A stretch of 63,878 nucleotides of DNA, filler included, from Collodictyon triciliatum (GCA_043381765.1; 8 parts of 8 records of this genome joined end to end with filler, not necessarily neighbours in it); one strand, 5' to 3'. Positions 10,579-52,480 are shown, counted from the first letter of the whole stretch. Notes: generated from the letters alone by a model not told the origin. Translations and numbers: made by a program.

Positions 10579-10674
<96 letters not shown>

Positions 10675-10854: not shown

Positions 10855-13800
10855 CACCCACGAATGCTCTCCACAAAATGCTTGACACATAGTGTTTTCG
10901 CGCTTTGAGCCGCGCCAGTAAAGCATTCTCAAGTGTGTGAGTTTCCCGCAATAAACGTGGAAATGGTTGTCGCAACCCGAAAAAGCACAAGGAAGACAAT
11001 AGCCCCCTACTTCGCCACAAACAGAGCAAGGCTGTTGGATTAACATAAGATAGTATGTATATATAAGTCGTTGGCTCTAGTTGATTAAGTACAAATCGTT
11101 CATTTTAAAATTAACTCACTAGACAGCGTGAATTAGTAGCGCATTATCCTCAAATATATTGGCGTCGGATAAATGGGGCTGTTTACAATTAGGAGTGATT
11201 GTATGTTATCCTTACCTTGTCGCTTTTTCGATTCGAAAGGGCACCTTCAACCCCAACAATTGGCTGAAAAGCAACTTCGCTGCCAAAGCGAACGCCAGAC
11301 GTCCACAGGGCACATGTGAGATGTACCCAACTTGACTCGGATTTTTTGAATGCACCTTTTACGATTGGGCACAGCATGCAGGCTTCCTCAGGCTTCTTGA
11401 ATAATTTAAATAGATATCAGATGAAATAGAGGGAATAATCTTATGAGAGAATAAAAACTGGAGGGAGAAAACGAAAATGATTTTTTCCCTTTATTTGATT
11501 CAAAGAAAATGAAAAATGAATAATGAAAAATGAATAATGAAAATGAAAAGAAAATGAAAGAGTGAGAAAATAAAGTGGTATACCTCTTGCTGGGCGAATT
11601 GGCATCGGTCGCATTTCCACGTCAGTGATGGATATTGGTTTGGATATCCATAGCAAATTGAATGAACAAGTATATGACATTGACAGCATTTCAAAACAAC
11701 AACTTTGGAATCAACCCTGGAGAAGCAAACGCAGCATTGACCAAATAAATCCACTACACTGAGCGGCATGCGTTTCTCAGCTTCAGGCTTCTTTTCAGTT
11801 TTCGGTCTAGAAATTATAACCTCTTTGTCAACTGGCAGGCTCAGGGCTTGCTGTTGGGGCTTTGAATGAATCTCTCGGAGAAGCTCTTCAGTGGCAGGAA
11901 ATGTTGTGAGGTATGTTTTTGAATTTGCGCGAACAAACTGAACGATACTAACTTTGGACATGTCAACTTTGACCTGAGAATTTTAACAAACAAAAAAAAT
12001 ATAATATTATTAGATAAAAAGGTCGACCAGTGAAAAAATCTAAATTGAATCATGATGCAAATTGTCTAGCAAAATATACCTGGTTGGCTCTACATATCTC
12101 CTTTTTTTTTCTTTTTGAAAAAATATAAACAGCAAGGCAAGATATAGAAAAAAAATTACTTTTCCGACAACTTTGGAATGGTGCAGGCAAAATGGTCGCA
12201 AGCTGACGGTGCCGTCTGGCTCGATGACATGGCGAGTTTCATATCCATTCATTTTTGCGCATGTGATATGGAATGTTTGGCTACATCCTGGTTCGGAGCA
12301 TTTCACACATCCGCCGCCTCTGTTTCTACAAAAGCCACATTCCTGTATGGATTTGTCGAGCATTTAAAAATATCCTCAGTCATGGATTTCTTCACATGTC
12401 AATGTTGTCCATGGAATATATAGAAAGCAATAAACAATTGAAATATTGTGGAATACAAACTGTAAGCTTTTGATTCCTCGAAAGTAACATAGGAGACATT
12501 ATATCAGACATGAATTCCATGTTTTTTACAACCATTTCTGGGTTCCAAATTACACACGTCATGTGGCACCATCTTCCATCTTCTGATCTTCTCATGGCAC
12601 CACCACTCATGTGACATAAGACACATTTCTGTGAATAAAAATATCAGTAACAAAGGAGAGAAAAACATAAGATAAATTTAAACAAAAAAGTGAGGAAAAT
12701 GAAAATGACAGTAGAAAGGAAGAAAATATTATTGGTTGGCACTCAGAGTTTCTTGGGAAAAAAACTCATTCAGATGAGATTGCAAGGTTATGGGAACTCC
12801 CAACAATCTTGGGTGAATATGCATCTAACCAAAACCAAGACAAACCGCTGTTGCTGCGCCATTAATTCTGCACCGATCGCAAAACCATTGTCCATCCGGT
12901 ATCTTCCGCACTCCATAGCACGATTGGTGCACTGCAACATTGCACCGGTCACAGAAGAGGATTTCATCCTCCTCATATGATTCTGGATTGAAGCACACAT
13001 TGCATGCTGTGTCTTGTTCGTCTAATCCATCATGAGGATTAAATACTAACCCACGCAAAACAGAGCGAGGCTTAATCTCTCCAGGTTTTGGAAATTCCTG
13101 TGTCGGTTTTTGTGAATCTGAAATGGACTTTGTAACTGCTTTTGAAGGTTCAGATGGAACCAACGAGAGTGCCTTAGAGACCAAAGATTTTGCAGAGCTT
13201 GACCGCTTCTTTGGGGCGGGTGATGACACCAGGACAGATGATTTCGGTGACCTGACTCCTGATAAAGTTTGCGGTTCTTGATTGATTGAATTGCTTGTCC
13301 TTGATTTGGTTGTCATTCGTGTGATGGATGGGTCAAAACGGGAAATCGAAGGAGTTATATTGCGGGTGCGGGTGGGTCGAATCTGATACTCGTAAATTCC
13401 AAACTCATTAATATCAGTATCTTGTTGACTTGGTTCATCTTTAATAGCTATTTGTGTTTTTGGTTTCTTGGGCCTTGCTTGGGATGGCTGGGCACTAGGG
13501 GATTTTGTAGACACCGTGGATGAATTTGATCGCTTCCGCCCTGTGCTTGTTCGTTTCTTGCTACTGTTTTTTCGATGTCTACGAGAGGATGAAGATGTGG
13601 GTGCCTCGTCAGGAGAGTCTAGGTCGCGAAAGCGTTGCTGTTCATAAAAAAAAAAAGTAGTTATTTATGTGTATCTATAAACTTTGAATCGAATAAGGAG
13701 AGTAATTATTTATTGTCATGCCTGTTAATATACTATTTTGAGAATGAGAATGAGAAAATAAAGTATTAAAAAAATCTACATGCCCAACGACAAACAAAAA

Positions 13801-16800
13801 CAACTAGAAATAAAAATAGAGGTAACCCCTTTGAAGGAAATGAAAATGAAAATGAAAATGAAAATGAAAATGAAAATGAAAATGAAAGATGAGAAAAATG
13901 AAAGAAACCTCGTCATGTTCAGGACATCGCATAATTGCGCGAGGAATACGTTTTCCAAAGACTGACCGAACCATGATGTTGTCCTTAATCGCGCATGTGA
14001 CATGGTATTTTATTGGGCACGTATATTTTGTGCACTCAAATTTGACTCCCATTCGCAGGTGACAGGATTGACACGACTAGAAGTAGGTTATTGGAAGTTA
14101 CATATACTAACTCCTTTCAGCCCATAAATATATACAAAACAAGCTAATCTAGGTTTTCTTTTTATTTTAGGATTCCTTGTTGTTTAAGTACTGTGTATCG
14201 TTTAGCTTTAACAAATCAAAACCATTGTAAATAAAGAGGAACGAAACATAAGAAAATACCTGGAAGTCATCGGTCATTGTGAGCTGGAGCGGCTTCATTG
14301 TACTCAAATCTTTAGCCGACCCGATTCCGTTCCAAAAAGCGCATAAAATATGAGCGTAGTTTTCACCGGTGGGGATGCTTTCCTGAGAAACGGGCTGCAG
14401 AAACCCGCCCTTATGGGGACACAATACACAATTCTGAACGATAAAATCAATAAAAGAAATTACATCAATTAGCAATAAGCTGAAACGATAGAGTTTCTTC
14501 AAAGGCCCTGAAATCGAATAATGAGTGACAAAGTGGCACTTTACTCCGGCAATTAGAGTGAATAAATGCATAAATATTTTTACAGTGAATAATATGTTTC
14601 ACTTTTTTTAATGGAAGAGGCCCTTTTTGCCATGATTTTTTTGTTCTTTTGTTCTTTTGTTTTTGCTTTTGCTTTTGCTTTTGTTTTCATATTGGTTAGC
14701 AAATTTTACATTCGGCTTATTCTCAGAGGCAAGAATACATCCAAGGCATCTCCAACCCGGGCTAAACTGATGAGGCTTTACACCATAGCATATCCCATGT
14801 GCCATACCACCACAAACACTGCATGTGATTCGAATATCCCCAGGGTACGTCCTCATCGACAGGCAAATCGCGCACTTGAAGTTTGGTACGATTGTGTTTC
14901 GTGGGGATTGTCTGTGCTTATATAGAAACGTAAAGGCAATCATATTAGGTCGGCCGAAGCGACCAACCAACGGGGCCACTGGAATCATACGCGACAATGC
15001 CTGTGCCTTCTCCTCTGAATCAACTCTCGGTCGACCGTGCCGTGGGCATGAGAATTGAACTCTGCCATTAAGACATACAGTCTTTTCATCTCGGTAGAGT
15101 CCCTGTTGTTGTGCGCACATAAGATGAAAAGAAATCGAGCAGTTTTTGAATGAGCAGCACACGGCTCCAATCCCTCCTTGGGAACAAAGGAAGCATTCCT
15201 AATGCGTAGGGATAAATAAGATTTTAAAAAATTGGTTCTTCAACTTTAATTTTTGAAAATATGCGACTAATTTGAACTTCGTTTTTTTTTTATGGGTATT
15301 ATAATTAGCTATAATTAATTATATGTATCGATGTGTATTTGAATTCAAGTGAAAATATTACAGTATCATGACTATCTCGAATCAAGTTTTTCAAGTCTCG
15401 GATTGGACCCATATTCTCTTTGTTAACTACACCCACATCAGGATGGTTAAAAGCACAGAAAACATGACACCATTTGTTGTCGACCGATTTCTTGAAAACT
15501 CCCTTCGTGCGCAAGCATAGGATGCATAACTACATATTTGGCGATTTGATTTGATTGCGATGAACTGTAGTGTATTGACGTATGAGCAAATTGATTAGGG
15601 ACAAAATTAAGTGACAAAAATGAAAGTAAGAGGAGAGGAGAGGGAAAGTGGGCTCTTAGGTCTTGTAAATACATTGTTGATGTGACTACAATCATAAATT
15701 TTACCACTTTCTGCTCGTTTGACTGGCATTTCATACACACCCAGCCCTTTGCGTTCGCAGAGCTAACTCCGTAACATTTTTGATGTGTTGTGCATCCGCA
15801 CACACGACACTTGATAATTCTGTTGTTTTGCATCTGATATTTCTTCCAACAAACTTGACATTCAGACGTCTCACCGTCACATTCCTCGACTTTCTCTTCT
15901 CCATCTTCAAACTTTTCGATTTTGTTTTCCAAATGCACTGAAAATGATTCTTTATTGACATTCAAAGCAGACTCCTCCGACTCTATGAGTAACTGATCAG
16001 ATCTAGTACTTCTTGAGGGATGATTCTCCATTTCTTTTGCACTAAATAAAGATGCAGTATCTAGCTGCTCAATCAGTCTCCTACATGAACGGGTGCTTCG
16101 ACGAAGTGTAAAAGATGTTGTAATCTCTGGGATTATTGTTTCCACATTTGCTCCAGGAATCTCTATATAAGAGTTTTCGATTTCGATATGGGTAGTGTGC
16201 GTATTTTCCTGGTTTGGCTCATCTGTTTCAGCCACAGGAGAGGACGGCGATAGGGATGCAGATGAGGATTCAGAGTCAGAGTTAGAATCAGAAACAGAGT
16301 CAGAATCAGAATCAGAATCAGAATCAGAATCAGGGCCAGGATATGTTTGATTAAAATCATTTTCTTTGACAATAACGATGGCCTGTGTACATTCATCTTC
16401 GAGGGGCGACAGCGCGGCAGCTTCGATATGCTCTTCGTGTTCCAGTACCAATTCTTCGACTTCGTCATCCTCGTTGAAAGATATCGTACTTTGATTGCTA
16501 CTACTATCAGACAGAGCAGGTTCGACTCCAGCGTTGTGGTGGTCGTTGATGACAGTGGACTGAAAAATGGACCAGTCTATTGAATCTGCCTCCGCTGCGA
16601 CTATCTGGTCATCAGCCGGTATATTTTTCTCAACAACAGCCGCGTCGCCTGCCTGTGATATGCTTTCAATATCCATGGTAGATTCTTCGGTAAGTGCCTC
16701 ACCTTGATGTATGGCGATTTCACTGGAGGGAAGCGACATTATAACTGATTGTGCTTCAGTGAAAGAATCTTGGCAAAATATATCTGCGTATGTATTGATA

Positions 16801-19380
16801 TCGTTTGTGGTTATCAAAGGGACTGGTGCACATGCTTCTTCGTTTGTCGCTTTCTTTCCGTCCGCTTGACTGGGTCGATTTTCTGCCATGTCAAAAAAGT
16901 CGGGGGGGGGGGGGGGGGTTATTTCACCATCTCAGGAATCGGTTTAAAGGAAATAAAGAAAAGAAAATGTATACACTACAGGTAATGCGTTAATATGTAT
17001 TGATTTTTAAAAGTGAAAAAAAAAACCTTCCGTAAGCCCATCAAGGGTCTCTGCCTCCGGTAATTCGCTATCCATTGGGTTTATATTCATGGAATCTGTT
17101 GTGAAAGAGCTTTTTGCTTTTGAATGTGTGGTATAATCTTCTTCCTTTCTTGAGTGGACCTCTCCGACGTCAAATCTAGGTTGTGAGGTTTGATTTTCTG
17201 ACACGCTCTCAGAATCTGGAACCTCGTCTTTTTGTTGTGTAACAGGGATCTGTTTTTGCTCGACCGGGACAGATTCTGTCTCTATTTTTGGATCGACCCC
17301 TTCATCAGATACAGAAAATCTTTGCGACCTAGTTCTCATCGTCTTTTGAGGAGGTGTTGTCTCAGGTGCTTTAATGAGCCTCCTCCTTTCGACAGATTTT
17401 GGCTTAGTGTCCGACCCAGGTTCTGTTTCGAGCTTCTTTGGTCTGGATGGCGTCCTTTTTTTCGGGGTCTTGGATTTTTCTGACCCTTTAGATAGAGTGG
17501 NNNNNNNNNNNNNNNNNNNNNNNNNNNNNNNNNNNNNNNNNNNNNNNNNNNNNNNNNNNNNNNNNNNNNNNNNNNNNNNNNNNNNNNNNNNNNNNNNNNN
17601 NNNNNNNNNNNNNNNNNNNNNNNNNNNNNNNNNNNNNNNNNNNNNNNNNNNNNNNNNNNNNNNNNNNNNNNNNNNNNNNNNNNNNNNNNNNNNNNNNNNN
17701 NNNNNNNNNNNNNNNNNNNNNNNNNNNNNNNNNNNNNNNNNNNNNNNNNNNNNNNNNNNNNNNNNNNNNNNNNNNNNNNNNNNNNNNNNNNNNNNNNNNN
17801 NNNNNNNNNNNNNNNNNNNNNNNNNNNNNNNNNNNNNNNNNNNNNNNNNNNNNNNNNNNNNNNNNNNNNNNNNNNNNNNNNNNNNNNNNNNNNNNNNNNN
17901 NNNNNNNNNNNNNNNNNNNNNNNNNNNNNNNNNNNNNNNNNNNNNNNNNNNNNNNNNNNNNNNNNNNNNNNNNNNNNNNNNNNNNNNNNNNNNNNNNNNN
18001 NNNNNNNNNNNNNNNNNNNNNNNNNNNNNNNNNNNNNNNNNNNNNNNNNNNNNNNNNNNNNNNNNNNNNNNNNNNNNNNNNNNNNNNNNNNNNNNNNNNN
18101 NNNNNNNNNNNNNNNNNNNNNNNNNNNNNNNNNNNNNNNNNNNTGAGGTATATATGAATTATAAATTGCGACAAAGTAGACCATTTGATATGTGACATTT
18201 GTAATATATAATGAATATACCAGCTTGACTTACCTTTCCATGTTATAAATGACTCGGGGAGCGAAAAGACATGAGCAGAAACATCGTCCTCTAAATTCAT
18301 ATAGCGAGAACCTCGAAACAAAGGCACATCCACATTCGACCATGAGACAGCTTCGTCCACTTCTTCCGCATTTGGCCCATTCGAGAATTCAGATATGACC
18401 TCTTGAATCACTTCCGGGTACAAGTGTGAACTGGCTGTTATTTCTCGCCCAATATATATGATTGGAATACGTCTTTCTGGTTCCAAAGGTCTTCGTCGTA
18501 TGTTATGAAAGTCGATCAATTTCTTCTGGGCATTTTCATGGTCGTTTTGTAGACTACTATGAGGTGCGTTAAGCCTATCTTCGAAATTGTCAATCTCATC
18601 CATGATCCCATCGTCAGGGTCTTCGATATCGTCATTTTCTGTATTGCCATCAACGATCTCTTTCTGCTCCATTATCTTGTTGGGTCGATTGAACCTTCGA
18701 GGCCTTGATGATGAAAGTCTTTTTGTCTTTGGTCGAACTCTCGGTCTTCTCTGGAGCACATCGGCGGGTGGGTACGGATTTGATTGCTAAAAGAGAAAGA
18801 GGATGGCGTATATGTGTAAATCTTTAGAAAAGGTCTTGCACATGGTTTTTTATTCAGTATTTATCAAACTCACTTCATGGCCAGAATGTGAAATTAGTTC
18901 AGAAGTTTCGAGTTTGTTGGACTCGAGTTCTTTCCAGTCAGAGCTTGTGCCCGGATTGGCATCGTGCATATTTGGTAAGTTTGCTTCTCGTGCGGGGGAG
19001 ATATGTGAACTGGCTGATTGGGACGCTCTCCTTGTAATACGTGGCTGTGGTGGGCTCATAGGGGTCTTTTAATTGGGTGGTCTCGTAATTAGGAAAGTAA
19101 GATATAAAGAAAACATTGTGAAATAATCATATATATTGTACCTTTGGATCGAGTAAAGACCAATTTTTATATATGTGTTGACTCTCAATATATAAAGCGT
19201 GTGTATGTCTCGTAGTATTTGGAGTCATACATGACGTGATTTTCTCCGAAGCCTCTCGCCTAACGGAGGATCTTCCCCAGAAACAGACGGAATCAAAACA
19301 AAAGTTTCAGTCATGTTGTCGGGCTTTGATCCGGCGATTGTTTCTGCATCAACGGCATCAAGCCTCTCACAAAGATCCAT
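10855..19380 (-). CDS. Chromatin reader of the BRPF/JADE/Nto1/AF10 type with four tandem PZP modules; 3' end truncated at scaffold edge
   Basis: Four sets of PHD1 (e.g. CNVC...[31 protein letters not shown]), knuckle (CVLC...GAMRR...WCHMTC) and PHD2 (CGFC...CVKC...C...FHITCA...FCLHH); possible EPC/EPL1-like segment near 18230-18500; GT-AG introns in frame. Confidence 0.85.
11481..11503 (-). mobile_element. Ultra-short A-tailed insert, copy 1 (TTGAATCAAATAAAGGG-A6)
   Basis: Flanked by agaaaacgaaaatga (11466-11480) and agaaaatgaaaaatga (11504-11519); intronic; flanks are low complexity. Confidence 0.5.
13683..13698 (+). mobile_element. Ultra-short insert, copy 2 (TTTGAATCGAATAAGG)
   Basis: Core match; degenerate flanking repeat agtagttatttat (13656-13668) / agtaattatttat (13701-13713); intronic. 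Confidence 0.5.
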
Positions 19381-20063
19381 CAAACAAGTACACCGCTCTC
19401 CTTCAACGATAAGGTGAAATGCTAGGGCAAAGAAAAAAAAAAGCAAACCATAATAGACGAAAAAACAGATAAATCACAGAATAGAAACATGTAGGTACAT
19501 AAGCGCATGAGATAAGGCCGATAGAGTCTTAGTTCAAAAAATGGGCAAAGTGTGAACGTTGAGCAGAGAAGAAGAAAAGGAGAAAGAGAGAAGAAAAAAC
19601 TGTGTTCTTCAAAGACAAACGCGGCTACTGTCTTCGAAGAACCAGATTCCAAGCCGATAGCTTGTTGATAAACAGTTACTGCGGTGTATTTCCATCATTT
19701 GAGTTGACGGATCAACTGGGCCGAGAAAAGTTCACGTTGTTAACTGGCAGTGGAAAAGATTGCGCTTTGCTCTTGGAAAGGTGGCAAGAAAGAGCACAGA
19801 TCCAGGGAGACAAAGCTTCTCCTGATTGATCTGTTGTTCATTGATATATATTATTATATATATACATTTTGATGTTGATAATATTATATTGTGGAGCAAA
19901 GTAGCATATAATATCGATAAATCATCATAATAAATATATTCCGCATTTGGTATTCTTAATTAGTATCAATTCTCACTTTTAATCCATTTGCTTGCCACCG
20001 GGTCCTTTGAGCCCTGGTTTGCTCTTGGTGACGCACACCCGGCTATTGATGGGCCGATCTTCG

Positions 20064-20105
20064 TAAACCTAAACCTAAACCTAAACCTTAACCTAAGCCT
20101 AAGCC
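20064..20105. repeat. Telomere-like hexamer tract (TAAACC)4 TTAACC (TAAGCC)2
   Basis: Read directly; lies between the divergent PZP and EF-hand genes. Confidence 0.8.
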
Positions 20106-20336
20106 AACAAAGTGCTATGAGCACCACGGTTCGGAGTTTGTCCGCCCAACTCCCGCCAAGGCCGAATAGGCAAGAATTGCAACCCATCTCCGACCGGAAT
20201 CCCTAATCTGGACGGGTGGTTGCGGCGCGGCTGCGGCGTGATTGCGCCGTTGTCTTTTTTAAAAGAAGAATATTTCGTTAGATCCGCTCGCGTCTGTATA
20301 TCCCATCTAACAGTTGCAATTTCATTAAATAATGGC

Positions 20337-20375
20337 GTGGAATTTGTAACTCCATAATATAGTTACAAATTCCAC
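20337..20375. repeat. Perfect 15-bp inverted repeat with 9-nt loop
   Basis: gtggaatttgtaact-ccataatat-agttacaaattccac. Confidence 0.9.
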
Positions 20376-20465
20376 AAATGGCTGGGCGTTTATATACTAA
20401 CATCGCAAGGCGAAACGTACATAATCCAGCAGAGGGGGCTGCACGTAGGAGGGCACTTGAGTTCA

Positions 20466-21207
20466 ATGCCTCGTACCAAACAGATCAGAGAACACAAAAG
20501 AAAGAAGAAGGAGAAGGAGGCACCGGAGCATCACGACGGCCTATTCTCTGCAGCTGAGACGGACTTTCACTCAAACAAAATGAATGCTACGCAGATGAGA
20601 GAGAATGATATGTTTGTCTGCTTTTAACCACTTGACAAACATAGCACCCAACAAACTTTATAGCATAGAAACCATGGAGATCGCAGGATTGATCAAATTT
20701 GGGATCTACCTGTCCCGTTCATCATCGCTGGTGGACAAAGTAAATGCCTCCGTGAAGGAGCTGCTCAAGTTTGACACGGACGGGGATCGGACGCTGAGCG
20801 AGGAAGAGATCAACGCGGTATTGCTAGGGCTCAAGGGCAAGGATGACAAGGATAGTGTCAATCTGCGGTGCATGCTGTTCTTCGTCGCACACTGCCACAA
20901 GCAGTGGGAGAAGGACCCCGCAAAGACGGACAAGCTGCTGTCCCAATCTAAGCCTTTCCTTTCATCCTGGGATAGAGACCCCAAGATAGCAAAGCTGGAG
21001 AAGATGCTTTGCACGTACTTTCGCTCAAACATTGAGGGTAAGATAAAGACTCGTGTCGAAACGGCCTTCTCAAAGATAAGCGAAGACATCAGCGGTCGCA
21101 TCCAGGAGAAAATCTTTGAAGAGACTATCGGCCCTGTCATAGAGGAGGTTATGACAGAGCTCTTTGGTGAGCTACTCACTGAGATCTTGCTTAACGTCCT
21201 CTTTTGA
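20466..21207 (+). CDS. Orphan alpha-helical protein with one EF-hand-like loop; either intronless from ATG 20674 or with upstream exon 20466-20611 joined by a 52-nt intron (20612-20663)
   Basis: Open frame 20605-21207 with DTDGDRTLSEEE loop; the upstream ORF MPRTKQIREHKRKKK... joins in frame via GTTTGT...TATAG. Confidence 0.65.
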
Positions 21208-21249
21208 TGATATTTATTTATTCTATATATATAGAATAAATAAATATCA
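21208..21249. repeat. Perfect 42-bp palindrome starting at the first base after the TGA stop
   Basis: tgatatttatttattctatat|atatagaataaataaatatca is its own reverse complement. Confidence 0.92.
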
Positions 21250-21995
21250 GATTATTTCATCCACAATTGTTTTGTGCGTTTATATACCCAATTCACGACC
21301 ATATATGGTATGAACGCGCGCCATCCTCGCCAAAAACAAAAATTGATTTGGGTTTATAATTTGCCGGGCCGATTTCAAAATGAACAAGTACACGCTGCAC
21401 GAAAGATTTATCCTCGGTCTTAAAAATAAATATGNNNNNNNNNNNNNNNNNNNNNNNNNNNNNNNNNNNNNNNNNNNNTTAATTAATTAANNNNNNNNNN
21501 NNNNNNNNNNNNNNNNNNNNNNNNNNNNNNNNNNAAAAAAAAAAAAAAAAAACAGAAAAAAGAAAAGAAACGAAAACAGCAAGGCAAAAGGCGAAAAACA
21601 AAACACTTTTACCAAGCAGTCGACAGACCAGGGCGTTTCTCTCTCACCTCTCCTTTGTCAAAGGGAAAATGAAAAAAAAAATATGACAAATAATATAAAA
21701 CAGAATGAAGGCCAAAAGACGCTGTCCGGACGCGACACAGGAAGAAAATACATGTGCACCGACCAACTCGCCCACAACCAACCAAGCGTTTCAAAGCGGA
21801 GGAAAATTATGCCAACAAAAGCAACAAAAGAGAAAAGGAAAATACACATGAATTATAAAACTTCCAGCAAGAATGTCAATGAGGGAGGACGATATAGCAT
21901 TCCAATGCCGCACCATCTTGCACGCGTATTTTAATTCTTATTTTTTTATATAGATTTTTATTAAGATGGTGACTTGCGTAAGGATATATCAGAGA

Positions 21996-24900: not shown

Positions 24901-25438
24901 CAAAGACAAACACAAACACAAAGAGAATAACAGAGAAAGGAAAGCGTTACATGGTCATCCAGCCCGCTGTAACCTCCGCTGTCCTTCGAGCTCTATTTCC
25001 AACACAATTTAGAGAATGAAAAGGGCTCCGACACACTCTGGTAAACAAATCCAGTGCCTCGAATCCGCACGGCCCGTAGAGACATGTCTGCCTTCCATCA
25101 GCACAATCATAGGACAAGTGTCCACCAGGCATCAAAGAAAAGAAAGAAAAGAAAGAAAAGAAAGAAAAGAAAGAAAAGAAAGATAGAATAATAGAATAGA
25201 AGACTCCAGAAGCGCAAGCATAAGCACAAACCATGGAAACCTGAGACATTCGCTCGCTCCTTCTCCGGGCGGACTCTGTGACCGAGCCGTGGAAGCTTCC
25301 GTACCGAATCGACGAGACAGAGCCGCTCTCGTTCGGAGTATCTTCCGAAACCAGCGACAGACAAGGGATGGCCAAGGAGTGGACCGAGCTGGGCTCCGAG
25401 TCCTTCCCCGTCCACGCTCGCGTCGGCGTTCTGGCCAT
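21996..25438 (-). CDS. PP2C/PPM-family protein phosphatase (multi-exon)
   Basis: Motifs NQD, FGVFDGHG, GTTA, ANVGDSR, SVDH, GLVTSRTLGD, GSDGVWD, GDNVSAIV in the expected order; canonical introns. Confidence 0.92.
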
Positions 25439-25648
25439 CCTCTCGCACCTTCCCGGCCGCTACGGAACGAGTCAGCCTCACGTAAGAGTTCTCGGCCCCC
25501 TCTCCTCACCCGGATTGACTCGGTTGTGTCTGCGCCGCCTTCTCTCTGAATCAGGGCTGCGAGACATTTGACAGCCGCCCGGCCGATAAGGTGCACGCAT
25601 GAGGCATCAGCGACTCGAGGAGTGCTTTTATCAAGACATCGGATTTAT

Positions 25649-32422: not shown

Positions 32423-32490
<68 letters not shown>

Positions 32491-40500: not shown

Positions 40501-40974
40501 TTAAAGTTCTCATCTTAAAAAGGTATACCTATTTTGCTAGCATGGGTGATTACATGAAAAATACCATTTGGTAAGAATAAAAAAAAATTAGGCTATACCT
40601 CAATAACCATTAAAGCAACCCCGATTCCAGCGGATATAAATAATAAGACCATGTTGTTATAGAATCTACCAGATATATTCTTTCTCTGATTCAATATGGC
40701 AAACGTGTCCCCTTTTCTAAAGTTTTCTCTTATATCGATGAATTAAGTTAGCATCGATTTTTATATTTTTGAAAAGAAAAAAGACAGTTAACCCAGTGGG
40801 TCTCTTCATTAATATCAGAAACCTAATAAGGCACATTCATTTTTTGTGCTTGTTTTCTTTAGTTTTGTACTTAATCTCCGATGATCTTTTTAATTGTTTT
40901 CAGATCTGTATATCATGAATAAAATATAAAAAAGTAGACCCAATTATACCTCCTACTTCCTGGTAATTTTCCAT
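37599..40974 (-). CDS. Small-conductance Ca2+-activated K+ channel (SK/KCa2-like); start codon uncertain
   Basis: Pore TIATIGYGDI, S3 IHPIPG, S4 MLFRIYL, S6 GLVATALLISIV, CaM-binding-like KMKHAAAVAVQRIWR, C-terminal coiled coil; canonical introns. Confidence 0.85.
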
Positions 40975-42050
40975 TTCGTGATGACCTATGATACAATAAA
41001 AAAAAAACGCTACGGATTGGCATTTGAAGGAAAGTAGATATTGATGAATTATGGGCAATGACGTTTACTTCTCACTCAAAACAGTTTAACAAGGGAAAAT
41101 ATTATGGTTGGTCAATTCGAAAAGTATGTACTCCATGACTGTAACACTCCTTAATTATATTTTGATATTGAATCATATTTTGAATAATTAAATATCAAAT
41201 TTCATTTAGAGTTTCAAAGTAACTCTGCGCTTCAATAAAGAGCGGTGAAGATGGTATGGATAAATCTATAAATTGATCCTCACCCCGGGCTTGCAGCTTG
41301 CACCGAGAGTTCTTTATGTCCTACAGAAGACAGTTGTCAGTAGTATCTCTATGAGCTCCTTCGCATTTTTTTTTTTAAGGAACGCCCTTTTTTTCATTCA
41401 TTGCAGGTGATTGCGTATAAAGTCCAAACAATAGAAAAGTTTGGTAGGAAGCCCACCTTGATAATCAGTTTTGCAGATAAGAGAATTATCAAAAAGGAAA
41501 AAATTGAAGTCGAAGTGAAGCTGAAGAATGAAAAAGTTGAAAGGCAGCGCTGGTTAACCTGTGTTATCGGCTGCCAAGTCTAGCATCTCCGTTGGCTTAG
41601 CCCCAGTTTTGCTGTGCTCATCGTGTCGAGGAAGCTGCATGACCTTCCTGAAGCCTTTTGGAGCACGGCGAATGTATTCCTTTTCTTTCCTTCTTTTGTT
41701 TCTCTTTTTTTTTGTTCCCCTCCTCCGTGCGTCGGTAAGTCTCGGGTTGGAAAAGAGCCCTGGTACGAAGAAGGGATATGTGATCTGGCACTTTTTGCCT
41801 AAACAAAGCTGGTATCCTCCGTCAAACCCCCCACAGAAAACAAAAACAAACAATAAAAAAAAAAGAAGTGAAAGCAGGCTCTGCAGATCTGTTTGGTTGT
41901 GTTTGCACTTTTTCACATCTCCGAAATCAAGCAAAGAAACAAGCGAACACTTTGGCACAAATCATATCGACTACATGTTTGGTTCTGTGGGGGTGCAGTA
42001 CGATGACATAAGGGATCTGTCGGACTTGACAAGAGGGCGGGCCCAATCGA

Positions 42051-42375
42051 ATGGTGGGTTCTCTCCCATCCGCCAAATATCCCCCACAGCCTTGGCGACC
42101 TCCGAGTATCCGCAGCCCTTGTAATCGATCTGTGACAGCCGTTTGTGATGGTTGTGGTGAGAGTGTCTGCATCACTTGTAATTTCGAGCGGGTCTGCGCG
42201 TTTTCTTTGTTGGTGGAATCTAACCCGAATCTACATTGAGATAAACACGCTCTGTCTGAAACAAAAGAGGCTTTATTGCGCAGCATGTCAGAAAGCCTGG
42301 TTCCGAAACCAAACCATCACCGAGATAAGCACACGGCAGCGCCACTCGTCGCTTAGAGATATGGAGTCCGTTTAA
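42051..42375 (+). CDS. Small Cys-rich (CxxC) putative zinc-binding protein; probable intron 42192-42240; start uncertain
   Basis: PCNRSVTAVCDGCGESVCITCNFER joins INTLCLKQKRLYCAACQKAW in frame via a 49-nt GT...GAG intron containing CTAAC. Confidence 0.4.
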
Positions 42376-43072
42376 TGGCAGCCCTCCCAACAATCCCTAA
42401 ACAAAACAGATACTGACTCGTCATTCACCCCGCTGGTGACCCTTCTAATTCTTTGGCCCTCTGCATTCGTGTAGAGCTGAGATATATCACACAACTTTCG
42501 AGCACTCACCAAGCGAGTGTTTTCGGACGCCAAAATAGTGAACAAATTATATGTACGTCGAAGAAATGTACCGCCATCTTTAATAAGATACCATTCATGA
42601 AGATTTATATACAGCTATAAGCTACTAGCCATCATATTATTGTATTATTGTGGCGCATTTTGTTTATTATTGGCTTAAAATAGAATAATATTAATATTCC
42701 AGATATAATTCAACGGAAATCCGTTACCACTCCAATTATATTAAATTTCATTGAATATTCCAAGAATATCTTCGCTTGATGCGATTGGTGCAGTCCCAAG
42801 CAAAGGCCAATTTGTTTCAAGCCGCGAGGTATCCCCAGATCGGCCCCGTGTGCTGGTGGTCCGATGCCAAAAAACAAACAAACAAACAAACAAACAAACA
42901 AACAAACAAACAAACAAACAAACAAACAAACAAACAAACAAACAAACAAACAAACAAACAAACAAACAAANNNNNNNNNNNNNNNNNNNNNNNNNNNNNN
43001 NNNNNNNNNNNNNNTTAATTAATTAANNNNNNNNNNNNNNNNNNNNNNNNNNNNNNNNNNNNNNNNNNNNAA

Positions 43073-43103
<31 letters not shown>

Positions 43104-43660
43104 CAAAACAAAACAAAACAAAACAAAACAAAACAAAACAAAACAAAACAAAACAAAACAAAACAAAAAACAACAAAAATGTAAATCATAAAAAATGAAA
43201 CATTAACATAAATAACAAGTAAAATAATACAATACCTAAATACTCAAGTATTTAATTATGTAAAACAACCAAAGCATAAAAAGAAAGAGTGCTCCCCTTC
43301 TACATAAAGAAAAGTGACTAAATATCATACCAATTCTCTTGGAAGCGGCCTTATTTTCTGCCAATAAACTATTGCGATGAACCAATAAGATCATACCAAT
43401 TAGCACGACTATGCTAAAAATGAAATAAAATGAAATATGAAATATGAAAACGAAATGAAAGAAGAAAGAAGAAAGAAGAAAGAAGAATAAAAGAAAAGAA
43501 AATAAAATAAAAGAAAAGAAAAGAAGAAAAAGAAAAAGAAAAAGAGAAGAGAAGAAAAGAAAAAATAAATTTAAGAAATGAATAATGAAAAAATATTAGC
43601 GCCTCTTCTGACTGACTCTCGATTTTTACTCTCGCCCTCCCTCCATTTTTCCTCTTTAAG

Positions 43661-46600
43661 CTGCGCAACCCGGACAAAGATTTCCGTTTCATGGGGCTAT
43701 CTGATCTGTTAAATGCTCTGAATGATCGACCAAGCCTCAAGATTGACGGAGAAAACGAGACTAGGATTGTCTCTCATATTGTTCATATCTTACAAAACGA
43801 TTCATCTGGAGATGTGAAAGGAATCGCTCTGAAAAGGTGGGTAATTGATTATGATTCTACCAATGCGGTATGTTAATTATAATGGTCACTACTTAATAGA
43901 AATAATCGCACAAATGACGAATGAAACAAAAATGAAGATAAATAAAAAGCAGAAGCAAAAGTATATATGAGAGATAATTGGCATCAAGAAGCAGATTTTA
44001 ACCGCGAAAAAAAATCATACAAAAGCGACTTTTTTCATGGCGTGAAATGTGCGTCAAGTTATATATTACCTTTTTGTATCACATCGATGTAATTTAGTAC
44101 ATTCACACATATACACACTACACAAAAAATATACGAAATATATTTACCGAGTTAAAAGTTGAACCATTTTGATTCTCGTTCGATATTTTTAGCACACGCC
44201 ATTACAATATAATTGTTGATGCTAAGGTCATCCACTTATTATTCACCACGACCAGAGCTTGGCATCTCGCTTTTGAACAAAATCATTTTCTTTACTCGAT
44301 TTACTAAGTTGTCTCAATATATTCACTTTCTCATCGATACAGCTTACCTGTCCTTGTTTCTCGCATATCCGAAGCTAACCTGAACACTCTGACCGATGCT
44401 CTGGTCAACGGAATTTCTGACAAGCGTGATGAAGCCAGGGACATTTGCAATATTGGATTAAAGTCCATATTGTCCTCAATTTCTAGCGAGCAGCACACGC
44501 CTTTTGTTTTGGTCGCCAGAAAACTTTGTACCAAGTTCCTACATAATATTCAGGGGGTAAAAAAAAACAATTCCATAATACAAATTCTTTTGAAACCCTC
44601 TGCTTTGAATTTATCACTTCAAAATATTACCGATTAATAGCATCGTATACGATTCTGATAATTTTTCTTAATAAAACATATGTATCTAATTCCAATCTCG
44701 GAGATATAAAGTAAGAAAGTTATTACAATTCCAATCAATATAGCAAGAGGCTTCCAATGAAGCAAAACAGGAATCCTTAGATGTTCTCGGGGATGTTCTG
44801 AAGTACTTTGGTGGAAATCTAGCGCTAGATCACGAACGGGTCTTAACTGCTCTCATTGCTTCTCTCTATTCCCCTCGCGCCAACATCCGAAAGAGATCTA
44901 TTGCGCCAATCAGTTTGTTTATTACACAGATAAAGATTTTCAACATTGTGACTCCATGAGCCATATTTTAATATCAATTTTTTTTAAAAGGAAACCTGAA
45001 TCATGCCGTATACGAGAAATCAACTTAATGACATGTTAAATAGGCAATATTGTCCCTTTTCTGATTGATTCGCACTTATCTACTCTGATGGACAGCATCC
45101 TCGACAGCCTCACGAAGAATTCGAATAAGGAAATACAAAAGGCAGTTATTCAGCTCATTGCATCGATCAGGTTTCCTCACATACTGTTTGACAATTCACT
45201 ATAATGACATCCACAGTGGTCAATCTATAGACTATTGCCGTGGGCCAATTAAAGACATGTGAAAATGTCATGGAATAAAAAGAGCTACAATTTCTTTTGA
45301 AGACGAAATATTCCCCTCATTTTTTTAACACAAAAATTAATAAATAAAATCGACACAGTCGTACCTCGGGTTCAAAGCTCAGTCGCTTCCTCCCCAAAGT
45401 CATTCCACTACTCGAGCAATCTATGAATACATCTGATGATGACGAAGTCAAGGAGTTTGTCTTACAGGTTATCATCAGTAACAATTTTTTTCCTTTACGC
45501 GTCAACTTAATTAGATTGTTCGACCCCTCGCCAACTGATTGCCTACACAGGCCTTCGAATCAATTGTTCTTCGATGCGCCCGCGATGTGACCCCTTTCAT
45601 CGATGGATTGATTTCAATTGCCGTGGCTAATATAAAATACGACCCAAACTATGTCATGGTATGTTTTGATACCCTACACAGATATATCTTATCCCTACGT
45701 ACCTTGAATCGAATAAAAGGAAAGATGTTATTCCATACCCACGTTCTTCTCAACAGGATGACGGAGACGAAGATGAAGAACTTGAGTCTGACGACGAATT
45801 AGATGGGTAATTGCTTATCTCCTAAAACACCTATTACTGAATGATATTATCATATGCACATTATTTTTACTCCATAAAGTAGACCCTTCATACATGTAAA
45901 GTTTTATAGTTTAATTATGAATGATTATGTCATGTAAATTTTAAGCCATTATCCTTTCGCAGGGACGATGGAGACTATAGCGATGACGAAGATATTAGCT
46001 GGAAAGTCCGACGCTTTTCAACAAAGCTGCTTTCTTGTATTTGCTCCAGTCGCTCAGATATTCTTGGGTCCATTTTTGAGAGAGTAAGTTTTCTTTTAAT
46101 TACGATTATTTCGAAAAATAATACCAGAAGTATAGACATACATATATGATAGCTAAATACAATCGCCTCTGTTCGTTTCGGGTCACATCCACTAAGAAAT
46201 TTATACACTTTGAATCGAATAAAGGAAAAAAAAAGAAGAAATTCATACACTTTAGGAAGAATAAAAAAGAAGGAAGAAATTCATACACTTTCTGATTATT
46301 TCAAAGCCTTCGTGTCCATCACAATATTTCATTTATTTGATTTTATCAGAAAGAAAAATAAAATGTAAAATTGATTAGGTTTTCTCTATCCTGGTGAGTC
46401 GTCTTCTTGAAAGAGAAGAATCTGTCAGGGTGAGTGTCTCGTTTATACATAGCTTTTTATTACTTGACACTTACAGGGTTAACCACCTTCTGCTGGCCCC
46501 TTTAAACGTTCAAGTACAAATATCCATAATAGCTAAATTCATTAATTGATATTTTCAATTGAAATACTGAGTTTCTCTCTTTCTGCCATTCTTTCTTTGT

Positions 46601-49600
46601 GGAATACATAGGTGGAGGTGTTAACCACACTCACGAAGCTGACTCACTTGGCCAATATGATAGGAAAATCTGATTCCAATACATCCTCAAAGTTTGCAAC
46701 ACTTTCATCACAAAACAAAAACAAAAAAAAAACAATATAATGAATTTGTAATTATTACAGCCATGTTTGATATATGTGTCACTTTGATAAACTCACCATG
46801 GTTCTACTGTAGTAAAATGTTCTAAACATGCTAAACTAATTTAACGTAACTGAAGATTGGTCTCTGCTGTTCATGAACATATTGGAAGCATCGTGAAATG
46901 TGAGTTAGTAAAGCACTTTACATTCACTTAAATGGTGACAAACAACAAATAAGAATATCCGAATTCTATCCGATTTAATCTGGTTGATGGCCATCAATCT
47001 GACCGCATCGTATCAAACTAGCTGTTGTTAAGACGGTTAAGAGTGGATTGCAGAAGACAAAACCCTTAGGATTTATTTTGTTACGAGGACTCTCATCGGT
47101 ATAATATCAACTTTTACTGGCAGTTTCTTATTTACTTCATTATTTTTTTCAGCATCTATACCTTCAACCTGTTGACTTGACATTCTCCTTGCAACATATT
47201 CATGACGATATGACCAGCCCTTTTACTCATGGAAAATTATCTCAGGTTGTCCCAGGATGTCTGAACCAGTACCTCTCACAATTGATTTCGTTAGCATCAA
47301 GTGTAGCCGTTGTATGTACCTGAATACCGCACCATCCAATACTTTCTTTTTTTTTTTTAAAAAAAAAAAAACAGACAGAAACACGCACACCTATATATCA
47401 TAGATATGAACTCATGTTTCACAAATCGAAAGGTCGAATATATAAAGAAACAAGCTAACTCAGTATGGTGTTGTATATGAATCAGGAGCGATCAACCAAC
47501 GCACATGTGAAGCTAGAAATAATCGGATTTGCTCAGTCTGTTCTACCTGCCTCATTCAATCAGTCACTCCTTCCTGCTTTACCCGATCTTCTCTCGCTCA
47601 TCGTCTTTGCTTCAAAGGTAATTAACTTATATACAAGTGAGGGTTTCAGGTCGATACACGATTTTCGGTTACATAAATACCTCACAATTTGATTCCATGA
47701 CACAAAAAATTGCATCTAGGACACATATTACAAGGTTGTTGCAGATTCCATTCGATGCGGAGCTTCTGTTATTCGACTGTTAGGAACCCAGCAAGTAATA
47801 TATCTATGGTCAACATTATCTTTCTTTATCTATCTATAGCCATTTTGTGGGGTGATTATTTTTTTCCTTTATTCGATTCAAAAATTTTGTGGGTTGATTA
47901 TATACTACGAGGTAAATTAAGCTTTATCTACAGTCTAATATTCATGAATTATCCTTTTATTAGGGTATAGACCATTCAACAATCTTACCTCAACTGCAAG
48001 AATTCTTCACAAATGTTTTTGAAAAGGCAAAATCCCAAGACGCTGACCAAGTGATTTCTTTTCAACAGATAATTTTTTTCAATTTTCTACTTTCTTTCCT
48101 TCCAGCTCTACTTTACATAACTGTATCATCTTAATCCTTCGAGGTATGAACTTTGTTCCGATTCGAAAAGTTGTTTATGAAAATGTCTTTAACCTCTTGC
48201 ATTATGATAACTACAGGAAGTCAAGGATGCAGCGATTACAGGTCTTAGTTTGCTATTAACTAATACACAAGGCGTCTTCTCTGGGCGGGTAAGTTCTATT
48301 TCGAATTCCAATATCTATATATTTGTCTCAAATCACAGTATTCCCTTTCACTCTGACGTATTCTACTACATATTTGTATTCTATTTCGTGCATCATACCA
48401 CATCAAGCGTCCATACTGTATATATTTGAATAAATGATAGTATTCATTTCATATTTGCATGGTGGTAATGTCTTCCATTTTGTATGGCACGTAGGTTGAT
48501 ACGAGTATCCCCCTCTTTGTGGAGCGCTTGAAAAACGAAGTCACCAGAGTTTCATCCCTTAAAGTGACACCCAAATCTTTAAATTTCAGCTCTAGTCTTG
48601 GCTTATTCTTCTTTTTTCCCCTCCTATTCCTCATATGATTTTTTAAAATCCTGAAATGAAAAAGTATCGGTATATTCATTTCAGATAACGACCATTTTAA
48701 TATAGGCGATTGATTTGATTGGAAAATCATCTCTCAATATTTCACCATTTGTCCCCGCGATTATCGACGAGGCCACATCTTTCTTGCGCAAAGTAAAAGC
48801 CTAAAGACCCACAATATAATTTCATATGAACAGAATCTAACATGGAGTAAAAGGCTATGATAAAGACTATCATTTCTGATACTTTTACTTGTGACCACCA
48901 GAGCAATCGAACTTTGCGTCACGTGACTCTCCAAGTCCTTGACACCCTGAGTCGTGTCTACGGTTCCCAAATTACTCCAAACCAGTATTTACAGCTTATG
49001 ACTGATATATCCATGTCAATCAGGTAACACAAATATGAATCCTTGCATAGAAACATAACAACAATTTTTTTGGTTTCTTTTCAACAGTTTATTGAGAAAA
49101 AACAAAGCCGAGGAAACCGCCTTCGCAAAACAAAAAACAAAAAACAAAAAACAAAAAACAAAAAACAAAAAACAAAAAACAAAAAACAAGAACAATAAAA
49201 TAATAAAAGTATAAATAGTAATTCAGATTCTCACTGTATACCACAATGTATTGGAATTATATTGCTTAAAGCTCCTAGATAGTTTATAACACAAATTCCA
49301 TTTACCATCTGAAATCTAGCGAGAGTGACCTTCAAATCACGTATCTGTCAGCCCAACTACTCACAACTGTTTCCCTCACGAACAAATCTATCATTCCAAT
49401 TATTTACGACAAAGTCATGCCTGTTGTATTTACAGTATCGCAAAGTTCTCTTCTCCAAGGACATGCATTAGATGTAAGAACATCATATAGTGTATTAGGG
49501 TGTACTTTTTTCAAAAAAAAAAAAAAGCTCTTGAGTAGCATTTTGAACAAAAGCCTTTCATTCTTCCTTATTATTCTCCTTTCCTATCTTTTTGGTGCAA

Positions 49601-52480
49601 TATGAAATACTTGATGTTGCATTTGAAATATAGGGTATTCTCCACTTGCTCGAAGTACTTGTCAAATCCAATGACCCTAAGGCAAACTTCGTTGTACTAC
49701 TGGCTAATTTTTTGAGCATCCTAAACTCATCGACACAGCCACTGACAAAGCCAGCCATCAGTAACATTGCGCAGGTGATATTGAATCGAATAAAGTGAAA
49801 AAACACTGCGCAAGTGGCAAATCACATATTGAATATATGGTCTGATGAACATGTCATCCATCTTTTTTTTTAATCATTTTTCTTCCCATTTTGCCACATT
49901 AATATCAGTGCATCGCTGTTTTATGCATGAGTGCCACTGGGGTTCAGGCCCAGGAGACTATCGCTAAGCTCATATCGGGACTTAATGAAGCGCAGACGGT
50001 ATTTTCCACTATTTTCGAATAAGGGTACTCTATCACTTTTTTTTTTTTTTAACTTTCACTGCATTGTAGCCGAAGCTATCATATCTTATGAGCCTTGGGG
50101 AGATTGGTCGACGGATGGATTTGTCTGCCTACGGAACCATTTATGTATATATTTTCATATTTACATACATGCTCCGGTGATTGGATGTCATGTTCACATC
50201 CACAAATCATTTTTCCTTCTTTGACAAATATGTATTTTATCTTTCTTGGTGGTTATGGCCCTAAAATGTTTTAGAGTGCTGTTGGCGCATTTCTGGATGA
50301 TAGCTCAGATGATCTGAGGCTTGCTTCCTCTTTATCACTTGGACATATCGCCATCGGGAACCTGCCATTCTTCCTTCCAATTCTGATTCAAGAAATACAA
50401 TCCCGTCCAAAGAACCAATACATGCTTATGCATTCTGTGCGTGAGGTCCTGGTTCGATTCGCCTCGGTTGCCGAAGGTCCAAATGTAAGAAAAAGAGCTT
50501 GGCCTCTTCAAAATGAATCAACTATTTCTTTATTTTATTTTTATCATTGAACATCTTTTGTATTTCATCTGAAGACCTTACATTAACATACATATTTTAA
50601 CAATAACAGCTGGTGGAGCCTCATATCGAACAAATTATCAATCTTCTGGGTCGTTTCTATGATGTCTCTGAAGAAGGAACAAAAACTATTGTGTCTGAAT
50701 GTCTAGGAAAACTCATTCTGCTGAAATATGAACGTATCCTTCCTTACCTTCAGGTTAGCTGTTCCGTAAATTACTATTCAATATTGATTTATTTACGCAT
50801 GCCACAAACGCAAACATGTGGCGAAAAAGTGCAAAATACATCGATTTACACCATTGTTCATAAAACCTTTTGTTTTGTTTTGTTTTGGTTTGTTTTGTTT
50901 TGTTTTGGTTTGGTTTGGTTTGTTTTGTTTGTAAGACAACTATTCATACATTAATGCACCACCTCGCATACTAGCAACTACTTGGAAGTTCGTCCAGCAG
51001 CACTAAGGGCGTGATAGTATCATCTATCAAGTTTGCAATCCTGGAAAAACCTCACGCTGTTGACTCTAGTTTGGAGCAAGTTTTACCCCAATTTCTTGGG
51101 TTGTTGGAGGATTCTGATTTAGTGGGTTATTTATTTTATGTATAAAAAAATTATAAAATTGGGTTGGCGATTTGCCTCAACATATAACACTTGACAATAT
51201 ATGTATAGTAAGTCTCTTATTTTTTTCTTTTCTTGGGCTTCTTCCATACTGTCAGAATGTCCAAAAATCGTCACTTCAAACTCTCAATTACGTTGTTCAC
51301 TACAAACCGACACTCGTTCGCCCCATTCTACGCAATATTATCCCCATAGTCTACAGATATACTGCAGTCAATGTTAGTTGCATTCAATTGACATAACCTA
51401 AAATCAATCCACGGACAAATATCATGTCCACATATCAATCTTGCAATGTGCGTTTCTTTACAGATACTCATTTGCCCATTATCCAACCACCAGAAATCAC
51501 TGATTCGATTCGTAGACCTGGGCCCCTTCAAACACGAAATTGACGACGGACTGGATACCCGCAAAGCAGCCTTCACGTGCATGTAAGCAACTACCTTAGG
51601 GCAACATAAAACTAGCTATTGAAGTACGCATCCTCTCTCATTTAAGCTTATATCTCCCTCCCAATCATCTCCCTTATTACCTTTTTTTTTTAATCCCACT
51701 TGTTACTAACGAATATTCACGCCCTAGCTCAACAATGCTCGACCGCGTGATTGACCAGCTGGTGATGGGGGAGTACATCCCAATCGTGGTTGCGGGGCTG
51801 AAGGACAAGCCTGACATCCAAACACTCAACCATGTGGTTACTACTAAGCTGTGCTCCTATGTTCCCTCTGCAGTCGTCGTTGGTAGGGCTTATTTAAACC
51901 TCGTTCTTACAGCAACCGCACTGGCACTCTTGGTTGCCCTGTTTTCCACCAAATTACTCCGGTAGCCTTTGCAGCATCAAGGCCATTGTTGTAAATGATT
52001 TCGAATACCTCTTCGTCCGTCTTAGCTGCTGACTCATTTGTCGAGAACCTCTCGGCCACAATCCAAACACGTCCCAAGGAGAATGCCGTCAAGCAAGAAA
52101 TCGAACGCATCGAAGAGATGAAGCGCAGCGCGCTTCGGTTGCTATGAAAATACATTCTTAAAGAAGGAAAAAGAAGGAAAAAGAAGGAAAAAGAAGGAAA
52201 AAGAAGGAAAAAGAAGGAAAAAAGAAAAGAAAGTCTAATAATCCTTTCTAATGGCTATCAGGGCGGTGGATGCTATCATCCGGGCTTCGGAAGGTGATCA
52301 GCTGCCACCTGCGTTTGCGACATTTGTGGAGAAGGTCGTCAAGAGCAAGGAAATCGCGCCACTCTACGGTGAAGACCAATCTGCCCGCAGACACGATACA
52401 CACAATAACAAAACACGCAATAACACAAGACTATCATAGAACAAGTCCGCACCGACCGGGAAAGACTGGGCTCCGACTAA
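43661..52480 (+). CDS. CAND1: Cullin-associated NEDD8-dissociated protein 1 (TIP120), about 30 exons, first exon not seen
   Basis: [84 protein letters not shown]; all introns GT-AG in frame. Confidence 0.96.
45704..45720 (+). mobile_element. Ultra-short insert, copy 3 (TTGAATCGAATAAAAGG)
   Basis: Core match in a CAND1 intron; degenerate flanks agatatatcttatccctacgtacc / agatgttattccatacccacgttct. Confidence 0.5.
46209..46235 (+). mobile_element. Ultra-short A-tailed insert, copy 4
   Basis: TTTGAATCGAATAAAGG-A9 between 18-bp repeats aagaaatttatacacttt (46194-46211, overlapping the core by TTT) and aagaaattcatacacttt (46236-46253). Confidence 0.68.
47860..47883 (-). mobile_element. Ultra-short A-tailed insert, copy 5
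   Basis: Reverse-strand TTTTGAATCGAATAAAGG-A6 between attttgtggggtgattat (47842-47859) and attttgtgggttgattat (47884-47901), 17/18 identical. Confidence 0.72.
49781..49801 (+). mobile_element. Ultra-short A-tailed insert, copy 6
   Basis: TTGAATCGAATAAAGTG-An between aacattgcgcaggtg (49763-49777) and aacactgcgcaagtg (49802-49816), 13/15 identical. Confidence 0.65.

Follow-up and report, generated by a model that had tools for sequence, protein, structure and literature searches.

Six A-tailed inserts and their host genes

The window analysed here is a stretch of 63,878 bases from Collodictyon triciliatum (GCA_043381765.1), composed of eight contigs (1–10674, 10775–21434, 21535–32203, 32304–42970, 43071–53726, 53827–58771, 58872–62511 and 62612–63878) that are linked by N44-TTAATTAATTAA-N44, a linker with stops in all six frames. 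The genes of the window are cut by many short introns, and two of them host a family of very short A-tailed inserts that match the 3′ end of a long interspersed nuclear element (LINE). On contig 5 the host is a + strand CAND1/TIP120-like gene, two exon open reading frames (ORFs) of which match chain 1u6g_C at residues 335–383 (E 7e-8) and 866–930 (E 1.8e-13). On contig 2 the host is a − strand gene with repeated PHD and PHD-like fingers.

The inserts contain a 16-base core, TTGAATCGAATAAAGG, for which we identified six matches in the window at up to two mismatches, compared with 0.076 expected from base composition (mostly 29–46% GC along the window). All six sites named in the initial annotation of this DNA were thereby recovered, and its placement of them on two unlinked scaffolds was borne out: two copies lie within 2.2 kb on contig 2, four lie within 4.1 kb on contig 5, and none lies on the remaining six contigs. 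At up to three mismatches the window contains eight core matches, a number reached by none of 100 dinucleotide shuffles; the two additional matches, at 19144 and 63089, have neither an A-run nor a flanking repeat and were taken as chance. The six copies, designated by the lowest coordinate of their core, are as follows, together with their flanking target-site duplications (TSDs) or candidate repeats.

46194–46253, + strand: copy 46210 (core 46210–46225, 0 mismatches); TSD of 18 nucleotides (nt), 46194–46211 and 46236–46253, 17/18 identical, period 42; insert 46212–46235 (+), 24 nt, GAATCGAATAAAGG (14 nt of LINE tail) + A9G
47842–47901, − strand: copy 47866 (core 47866–47881, 0 mismatches); TSD of 18 nt, 47884–47901 and 47842–47859, 17/18 identical, period 42; insert 47860–47883 (−), 24 nt, TTTTGAATCGAATAAAGG (18 nt) + A6, antisense to the host gene
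49763–49816, + strand: copy 49781 (core 49781–49796, 1 mismatch); TSD of 15 nt, 49763–49777 and 49802–49816, 13/15 identical, period 39; insert 49778–49801 (+), 24 nt, ATA + core + GAAAA
11466–11515, − strand: copy 11488 (core 11488–11503, 1 mismatch); T-rich repeats 11504–11515 and 11466–11477, 11/12 identical, period 38
13656–13713, + strand: copy 13684 (core 13684–13699, 2 mismatches); repeats 13656–13668 and 13701–13713, 12/13 identical ungapped or 16/17 with one gap
45704–45724, + strand: copy 45704 (core 45704–45719, 1 mismatch); degenerate tail GAAAG; in a predicted 98-nt intron, 45659–45756

AATAAA is present in 5/6 copies and a run of at least six A then follows in 4/6, a combination that the initial annotation had described for most of them. 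Read in the orientation of the element, the 3′ tails are A9G at 46210, A6 at 47866, GA6 at both 49781 and 11488 and the degenerate GAAAG at 45704, and there is none at 13684. In four of the six copies the A-rich tail (10, 6, 5 and 7 nt) directly abuts the downstream duplication.

The flanking repeats were compared with 4000 random places of matching geometry, in which the first repeat ends at the motif and the second begins no more than 12 nt beyond it. Abutting direct repeats are carried by 4/6 copies, with individual p values over the six of 0.005, 0.005, 0.014, 0.014, 0.57 and 0.89. The Fisher combined p for all six copies is 9e-5, and the initial observation is confirmed. The three best repeat pairs reported earlier were also reproduced (17/18 at 46194/46236, 17/18 at 47842/47884 and 13/15 at 49763/49802). 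These TSDs begin with A (AAGAAA, ATAATC and AACA), as priming by a T-rich end predicts.

The three other copies are less sharply defined. Copy 11488, located between PHD-finger exons, has a CG>CA change in its core, the tail GAAAAAA, an insert of 23–26 nt and a duplication of 12–15 nt; its flanks are of low complexity and hence constitute weaker evidence. Copy 13684 is older and longer, with an insert of 28–32 nt that includes 11–15 nt 5′ of the core and has no A tail. This copy fails the abutting-repeat control, its 13–17-nt repeat lying 15 nt upstream and not next to the core. For copy 45704, neither comparison of the flanks nor the abutting-repeat control revealed a recognisable TSD; a candidate (13/16 with two gaps, starting from intron base 3) was dropped because its score of 13 was not significant.

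A second duplication adjoins copy 46210.

46232–46291, + strand: nested 22-nt repeat (21/22 identical) around a 16-nt A-rich filler, AGGAAGAATAAAAAAG

This repeat takes in 4 nt of the tail of the 46210 insert, and its filler has only GAATAAA in common with the LINE tail. It looks like the result of a later event, with a nick inside the tail of the 46210 insert.

All six cores lie between coding ORF segments, four in sense and two antisense to the host gene. Judged by these flanking ORFs and their homology, all six copies are probably intronic and in both orientations, as had been proposed. At copy 49781 the upstream TSD copy (49763–49777) would comprise the 12 closing nt of a CAND1-like exon, with its predicted end at 49774, followed by GTG. 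Using the GT at 49775 and the AG at 49907–49908, this exon would join the next coding segment at 49909 in frame; the upstream TSD copy would now supply the splice donor GTGATA, whereas the downstream copy, preceded by an in-frame TGA, would be intronic. Based on this in-frame GT…AG join, the insertion appears to have duplicated the exon end together with its splice site, the upstream copy keeping the host gene spliceable. We identified no significant PDB match for the two small exons around 49781, and a word-indexed protein search returned no CAND1 orthologue for exon mapping.

A LINE terminus as the probable source of the inserts

We scanned metagenome contigs for the core followed by an A-run and obtained 55 loci, of which a single one, L025, was relevant. 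The other 54 were chance matches in unrelated, mostly coding DNA, none with an abutting repeat; a period-57 repeat common to nine near-identical metagenome contigs proved to be a coding repeat lacking an A-tail junction. Scans of genome contigs and of viral contigs for the core gave 10 matches, all in bacterial records, and one match, respectively, attributable to chance only.

L025 is a metagenome contig of 1157 bp that contains a 202-amino-acid open frame with a zf-RVT domain, scoring 32.4 bits against a cut-off of 27.5, then, after one frameshift, a further 133-amino-acid frame and about 77 nt of untranslated sequence before the core. Its 3′ end reads CTACACT + core + A10 and gives way abruptly to an AT-rich flank. 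The region 549–606 of L025 is frameshifted, and the related proteins P0002 and P0016 read through it; L025 is therefore a dead copy or contains an assembly error. With the 202 residues of L025 as query, an exhaustive HMMER search retrieved 14 relatives, among them fragments that are 59–98% identical, seven relatives being close fragments, and four distant proteins of 1226–1275 amino acids aligned by their C-terminal region. Exo_endo_phos and RVT_1 are present in 4/4 of the distant relatives, with a sub-threshold zf-RVT in 3/4. A word-indexed protein search revealed no longer relatives of the L025 ORF.

Given the succession of zf-RVT ORF, 3′ untranslated region (UTR), core and A10 in L025, and the endonuclease and reverse transcriptase (RT) domains of its relatives, the core with its poly(A) is, on sequence grounds, the 3′ terminus of an L1-like LINE of the apurinic endonuclease (APE) type. 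The initial annotation had asked whether the core is a LINE terminus, and through L025 the answer is positive. Between L025 and the window the identity is 31/31 at 46204–46234, with shorter matches at the other five copies; at copy 13684, 7/11 bases 5′ of the core agree with the L025 tail. The other parts of L025 have no match anywhere in the window. The TSD copies differ from each other at 4/51 positions. Divergence of the inserts from L025 is of similar extent, as expected of real, old insertions, and the events are hence not recent.

A comparison of filled and empty sites came from the LINE itself. P0014, a predicted protein of 136 amino acids on a 561-bp ENA contig, represents a copy of the same LINE as L025 in another assembly. 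It carries a 14-residue insertion, EREINI duplicated plus FFSFIQFK, which is missing from 4/4 other aligned LINE copies (P0002, P0016, L025 and P0003). FFSFIQFK is one residue off FFSFIRFK, the reverse-strand translation of copy 46210 (ORF 45975–46280). P0014 therefore holds a reverse-oriented tail insert of eight codons (24 nt) between 18-nt duplications, with a period of 42 = 18 + 24, and against its paralogues it is a filled site compared with empty ones. The R>Q difference implies a CG>TG change in the core; together with CG>CA at 11488, both CpG variants are transitions, which hints at methylation-driven decay of the core.

The window itself contains one LINE coding sequence, at the edge of contig 6.

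53828–54019, − strand: RT fragment of an L1-like LINE; BLASTP match to P0010 (APE + RT), 36% over 53 amino acids, E 1e-7

When 15 LINE proteins were compared with the window by tblastn, this fragment (53828–54001, −) was the only match, with E values of 4e-6 for P0012 and 1.5e-4 for P0011. Its 64 amino acids alone gave no Pfam match; the alignment to the RT domain of P0010 establishes that the L1/Tx1-like RT annotated at 53827–54007 is real.

Taken together, we consider it probable, at roughly 0.75, that an autonomous L1-like LINE (APE endonuclease, RT and zf-RVT) itself produced the inserts, copying its extreme 3′ end by target-primed reverse transcription. This interpretation unites the LINE-tail identity, the duplications, the constant length described below and the filled versus empty paralogous sites. 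The earlier reading, in which the locus bears the mark of an APE-type non-LTR (long terminal repeat) element acting through target-primed reverse transcription, is supported by the LINE terminus, the A tail and the TSDs. Two of its further suggestions fared worse. Because the core is a LINE 3′ terminus, the inserts are copies of a LINE tail and not an independent short interspersed nuclear element (SINE), and they hold nothing beyond that tail. A hard RT stop, for its part, finds no counterpart in L025, where the LINE 3′ UTR upstream of the core folds no more stably than its shuffles (z = 0.40) and Rfam returned nothing credible and no ribozyme (best E 0.12, far below gathering).

Constant insert length and how it could arise

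The insert is exactly 24 nt long in 3/3 sharply bounded copies of the window (periods 42, 42 and 39), and in 4/4 sharply bounded cases when P0014, seen at the protein level, is counted. Tail and unique sequence trade off within this total, as 10 + 14, 6 + 18 and 5 + 19. In LINE coordinates the 5′ end lies at +2 in copy 46210, or at up to −6 if TACACTTT, an 8-nt microhomology joining the end of the TSD to LINE sequence, is counted; at about −1 in copy 47866, with one base unmatched to L025; and at 0 in copy 49781, where three further bases precede it, one of them a match. The range is +2 to −3, and about −11 to −15 in the older copy. Extra bases are found at the 5′ junction in 2/3 young copies, T at 47866 and ATA at 49781. 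The initial annotation had proposed that the copies start at nearly the same position: the uniformity stands but a fixed LINE 5′ coordinate does not, the constant being the total of 24 nt. Its view that ordinary truncation would leave far less uniform inserts is supported by the lack of intermediate lengths, no copy between about 32 nt and 1 kb being found in 62 kb of window.

Shorter copies were sought as 6–14 nt of tail followed by AAAA; this low-power search, which recovers 2/6 known copies, returned only known copies and an unflanked match at 45488. We also scanned the window generically for repeats of at least 12 nt (up to one mismatch) around an 8–70-nt filler ending in an A-run. Among 35 non-simple repeat pairs, six rows had a filler whose 3′ end is an A-run, compared with none in the mirror control. 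These rows were 46210, 47866, 47866 again on the other strand, the nested 46232, and the doubtful 24854 and 9155, and the scan of the window revealed no other insert family. At 9114–9198 (−), purine-rich direct repeats of 14 nt (13/14) flank a 29-nt filler that ends in GAAAAT; this could be a further tiny retro-insert or chance.

Memoryless truncation with lengths only 0–3 nt in excess of the minimum would predict many more inserts shorter than 16 nt; these were not seen, and the length distribution is therefore peaked, with the number of copies being small. The constant 24 nt and the trade-off between tail and unique sequence consequently point to a ruler on cDNA length, or to a 24-nt template, rather than to random 5′ truncation. 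We infer the order of nicking and, as the cause of the constancy, a switch that would come too early, once the cDNA has reached a set length measured by a putative protein ruler. In this mechanism the ORF2 protein of the LINE would itself carry out target-primed reverse transcription. A T-rich 3′ end would prime on the poly(A) tail, and after about 24 nt of cDNA (5–10 nt of tail and 14–19 nt of 3′ UTR) synthesis would move to the top strand, through microhomology (8 nt, 46210) or with 1–3 extra bases (47866 and 49781). The outcome would be a 24-nt insert flanked by 15–18-bp duplications. A switch after about 24 nt is plausible in the light of work on top-strand nicking by human L1 ORF2p: in the available text of that study, ORF2p nicks the top strand straight after initiation, the endonuclease (EN) domain lies about 20 nt from the first nick, and premature second-strand synthesis is put forward to explain 5′ truncation (Ghanim et al, 2025; PMC7617806).

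The main competing explanation, which we regard as unlikely, is that the LINE machinery copies a discrete RNA template of about 24 nt to its 5′ end, making each insert a true tiny retroposon. Such a template could be cut from the polyadenylated 3′ end by a Dicer-like ruler, or could be a stretch shielded by bound ORF2 protein. A ruler set from the RNA 3′ end gives a constant total with a varying split between tail and unique sequence, and a ruler set from the priming site accounts for the same numbers. The extra 5′ bases in two of the three young copies suit run-off at an RNA 5′ end, and the window is devoid of intermediate lengths; the microhomology at 46210, however, runs into LINE sequence beyond 24 nt, which a longer template suits better, and the older copy 13684 has 11–15 additional LINE-like bases. 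For L025, Rfam shows neither a ribozyme nor a processing signal.

It appears very improbable to us that the inserts reflect ordinary, random 5′ truncation by an RT of poor processivity, with selection in a compact, short-intron genome then retaining only the very shortest. This account agrees with the location of all copies in short introns of conserved genes, with the greater length of one older copy (28–32 nt) and with the small number of copies; as far as the available text of PMC2912911 indicates, L1 surveys usually skip inserts below 50 bp, so that very short copies may be common. Selection for shortness, however, sets an upper bound on length and not a lower one. Copies with 6–15 nt of tail were not found in the low-sensitivity search (2/6 known recovered), the generic scan produced no flood of A-run-only inserts with TSDs, and 3/3 inserts at exactly 24 nt would be unlikely if truncation were memoryless.

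An origin other than retrotransposition is barely credible, whether as filler templated during double-strand-break repair, as a local tandem duplication or as a conserved motif of introns. In its favour, the 18-mer occurs a third time beside copy 46210, together with a second filler, and copy 11488 has low-complexity flanks. Against it, the same filler recurs in either orientation at six unrelated sites, each site having a repeat of its own; the filler equals the LINE terminus plus poly(A), and its tail always abuts the downstream repeat. Filler left by end joining is not known to bring duplications of 15–18 bp.

Several observations weigh against retro-copying of the LINE tail with a length ruler. 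The data comprise six window copies and one protein-level case, only four of which are sharply bounded; the older copies measure 23–26 and 28–32 nt, and one copy is devoid of a TSD. P0014 is visible only because its 42 nt preserve the reading frame and contain no stop. L025 derives from a different sample, and the presence of the same LINE family here is deduced from 22–31 nt of identity. The RT fragment at 53828–54019, the sole LINE coding sequence in the window, does not overlap L025 and is consequently not assignable to its family. The ruler is a putative one, and the fold of the LINE 3′ UTR supplies no stop signal. Finally, the assembly is fragmented, with contigs of at most 10.7 kb that end in repeats, so that long young LINE copies would be missing and the upper end of the length distribution is biased.

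Almost every contig end (10675, 21435, 32204, 42971, 53727, 58772 and 62512) is a homopolymer or microsatellite, and contig 6 starts inside the LINE RT; repeats thus break this assembly. Elsewhere in the window, 36001–38000 forms an island of 59% GC in a contig that is otherwise 29–34% GC, and a 386-amino-acid open frame within it (36383–37543) encodes a Myb DNA-binding domain. Fifteen sequencing runs match small shares (0.18 or less) of 45400–50100, which say nothing of habitat, strain or expression. An F-box/armadillo ORF of 641 amino acids has a single database relative, 67% identical, in an EukProt transcriptome, which marks the source as a poorly sampled eukaryote.

Significance and comparison with known systems

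We hold it rather doubtful, though worth stating, that the main genomic output of this LINE is a fixed 24-nt tag, produced either by small-RNA retroposition, with the terminal RNA measured from its 3′ end, or by an ORF2 ruler at about 24 nt; either route would add micro-insertions of less than 50 bp to compact genomes. If the 24-nt mode holds genome-wide, the inserts would offer a natural read-out of the handover from LINE RT to second-strand synthesis, a step that, going by the available text of PMC7617806, has only recently been approached structurally. LINEs would then pepper gene-dense genomes with inserts too short for RepeatMasker-type surveys or those with a 50-bp floor. Each insertion adds about 40 nt to an intron and occasionally would duplicate an exon end and splice site, as predicted at 49763–49816. 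If the window, with its six copies over 62 kb and four in a single gene, is typical, there would be thousands per genome.

The closest known system is the 5′-truncated human L1 copy, which has in common with the inserts the 3′ end of the element with an A tail, TSDs of 7–20 bp, a 5′ junction with microhomology or additional nucleotides, and nicking at a T-rich/A site (available text of PMC2912911 and PMC7617806). Locus-specific TSDs within the 7–20-bp range are present in four of our copies, and the match to the 3′ terminus of an autonomous APE + RT element is provided by L025 and its distant relatives, the family being known here without a full-length member. The scattered truncation points expected of 5′-truncated LINE copies are not observed: according to the same available texts human L1 truncation points spread over kilobases, whereas here the insert is 24 nt in 4/4 sharply bounded cases, a small sample of 3/3 window copies plus P0014. 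The L1 junction survey of Kojima (2010) left out inserts shorter than 50 bp (PMC2912911, available text).

Short retropseudogenes of mRNA 3′ ends likewise are 3′-end-only copies with poly(A) and TSDs, which Terai et al (2010), in the text available, explained by template loss or truncation during reverse transcription (PMC2831318). These derive from many mRNAs in trans and have any length up to 300 bp, as opposed to the one template and one length seen here (PMC2831318, same text).

SINEs with LINE tails resemble the inserts in having the 3′ end of the partner LINE, and such SINEs are mobilised by the RT of that LINE. Platy-1, at about 100 bp, is called the shortest primate SINE in the available text of PMC4864456. 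Literature searches covering the main texts of papers yielded no mention of LINE insertions that consist of the tail only and have a fixed length, nor of SINEs shorter than about 100 bp. A SINE typically spans 80–600 bp and combines a Pol III head (tRNA, 7SL or 5S) with a body; the inserts lack head, promoter and body, are four times shorter than Platy-1 and consist of 24 nt of LINE tail and A-run only. An introner-type element brings its own splice sites and, by inserting, makes a new intron in an exon. The introns around the six copies extend well beyond the insert, and at 49781 the insertion would have kept an existing intron spliceable. The inserts thus belong to a known class, that of 5′-truncated LINE copies, and the label of micro-SINE is unjustified; what sets them apart within this class is their extreme and nearly invariant shortness, which is unusual.

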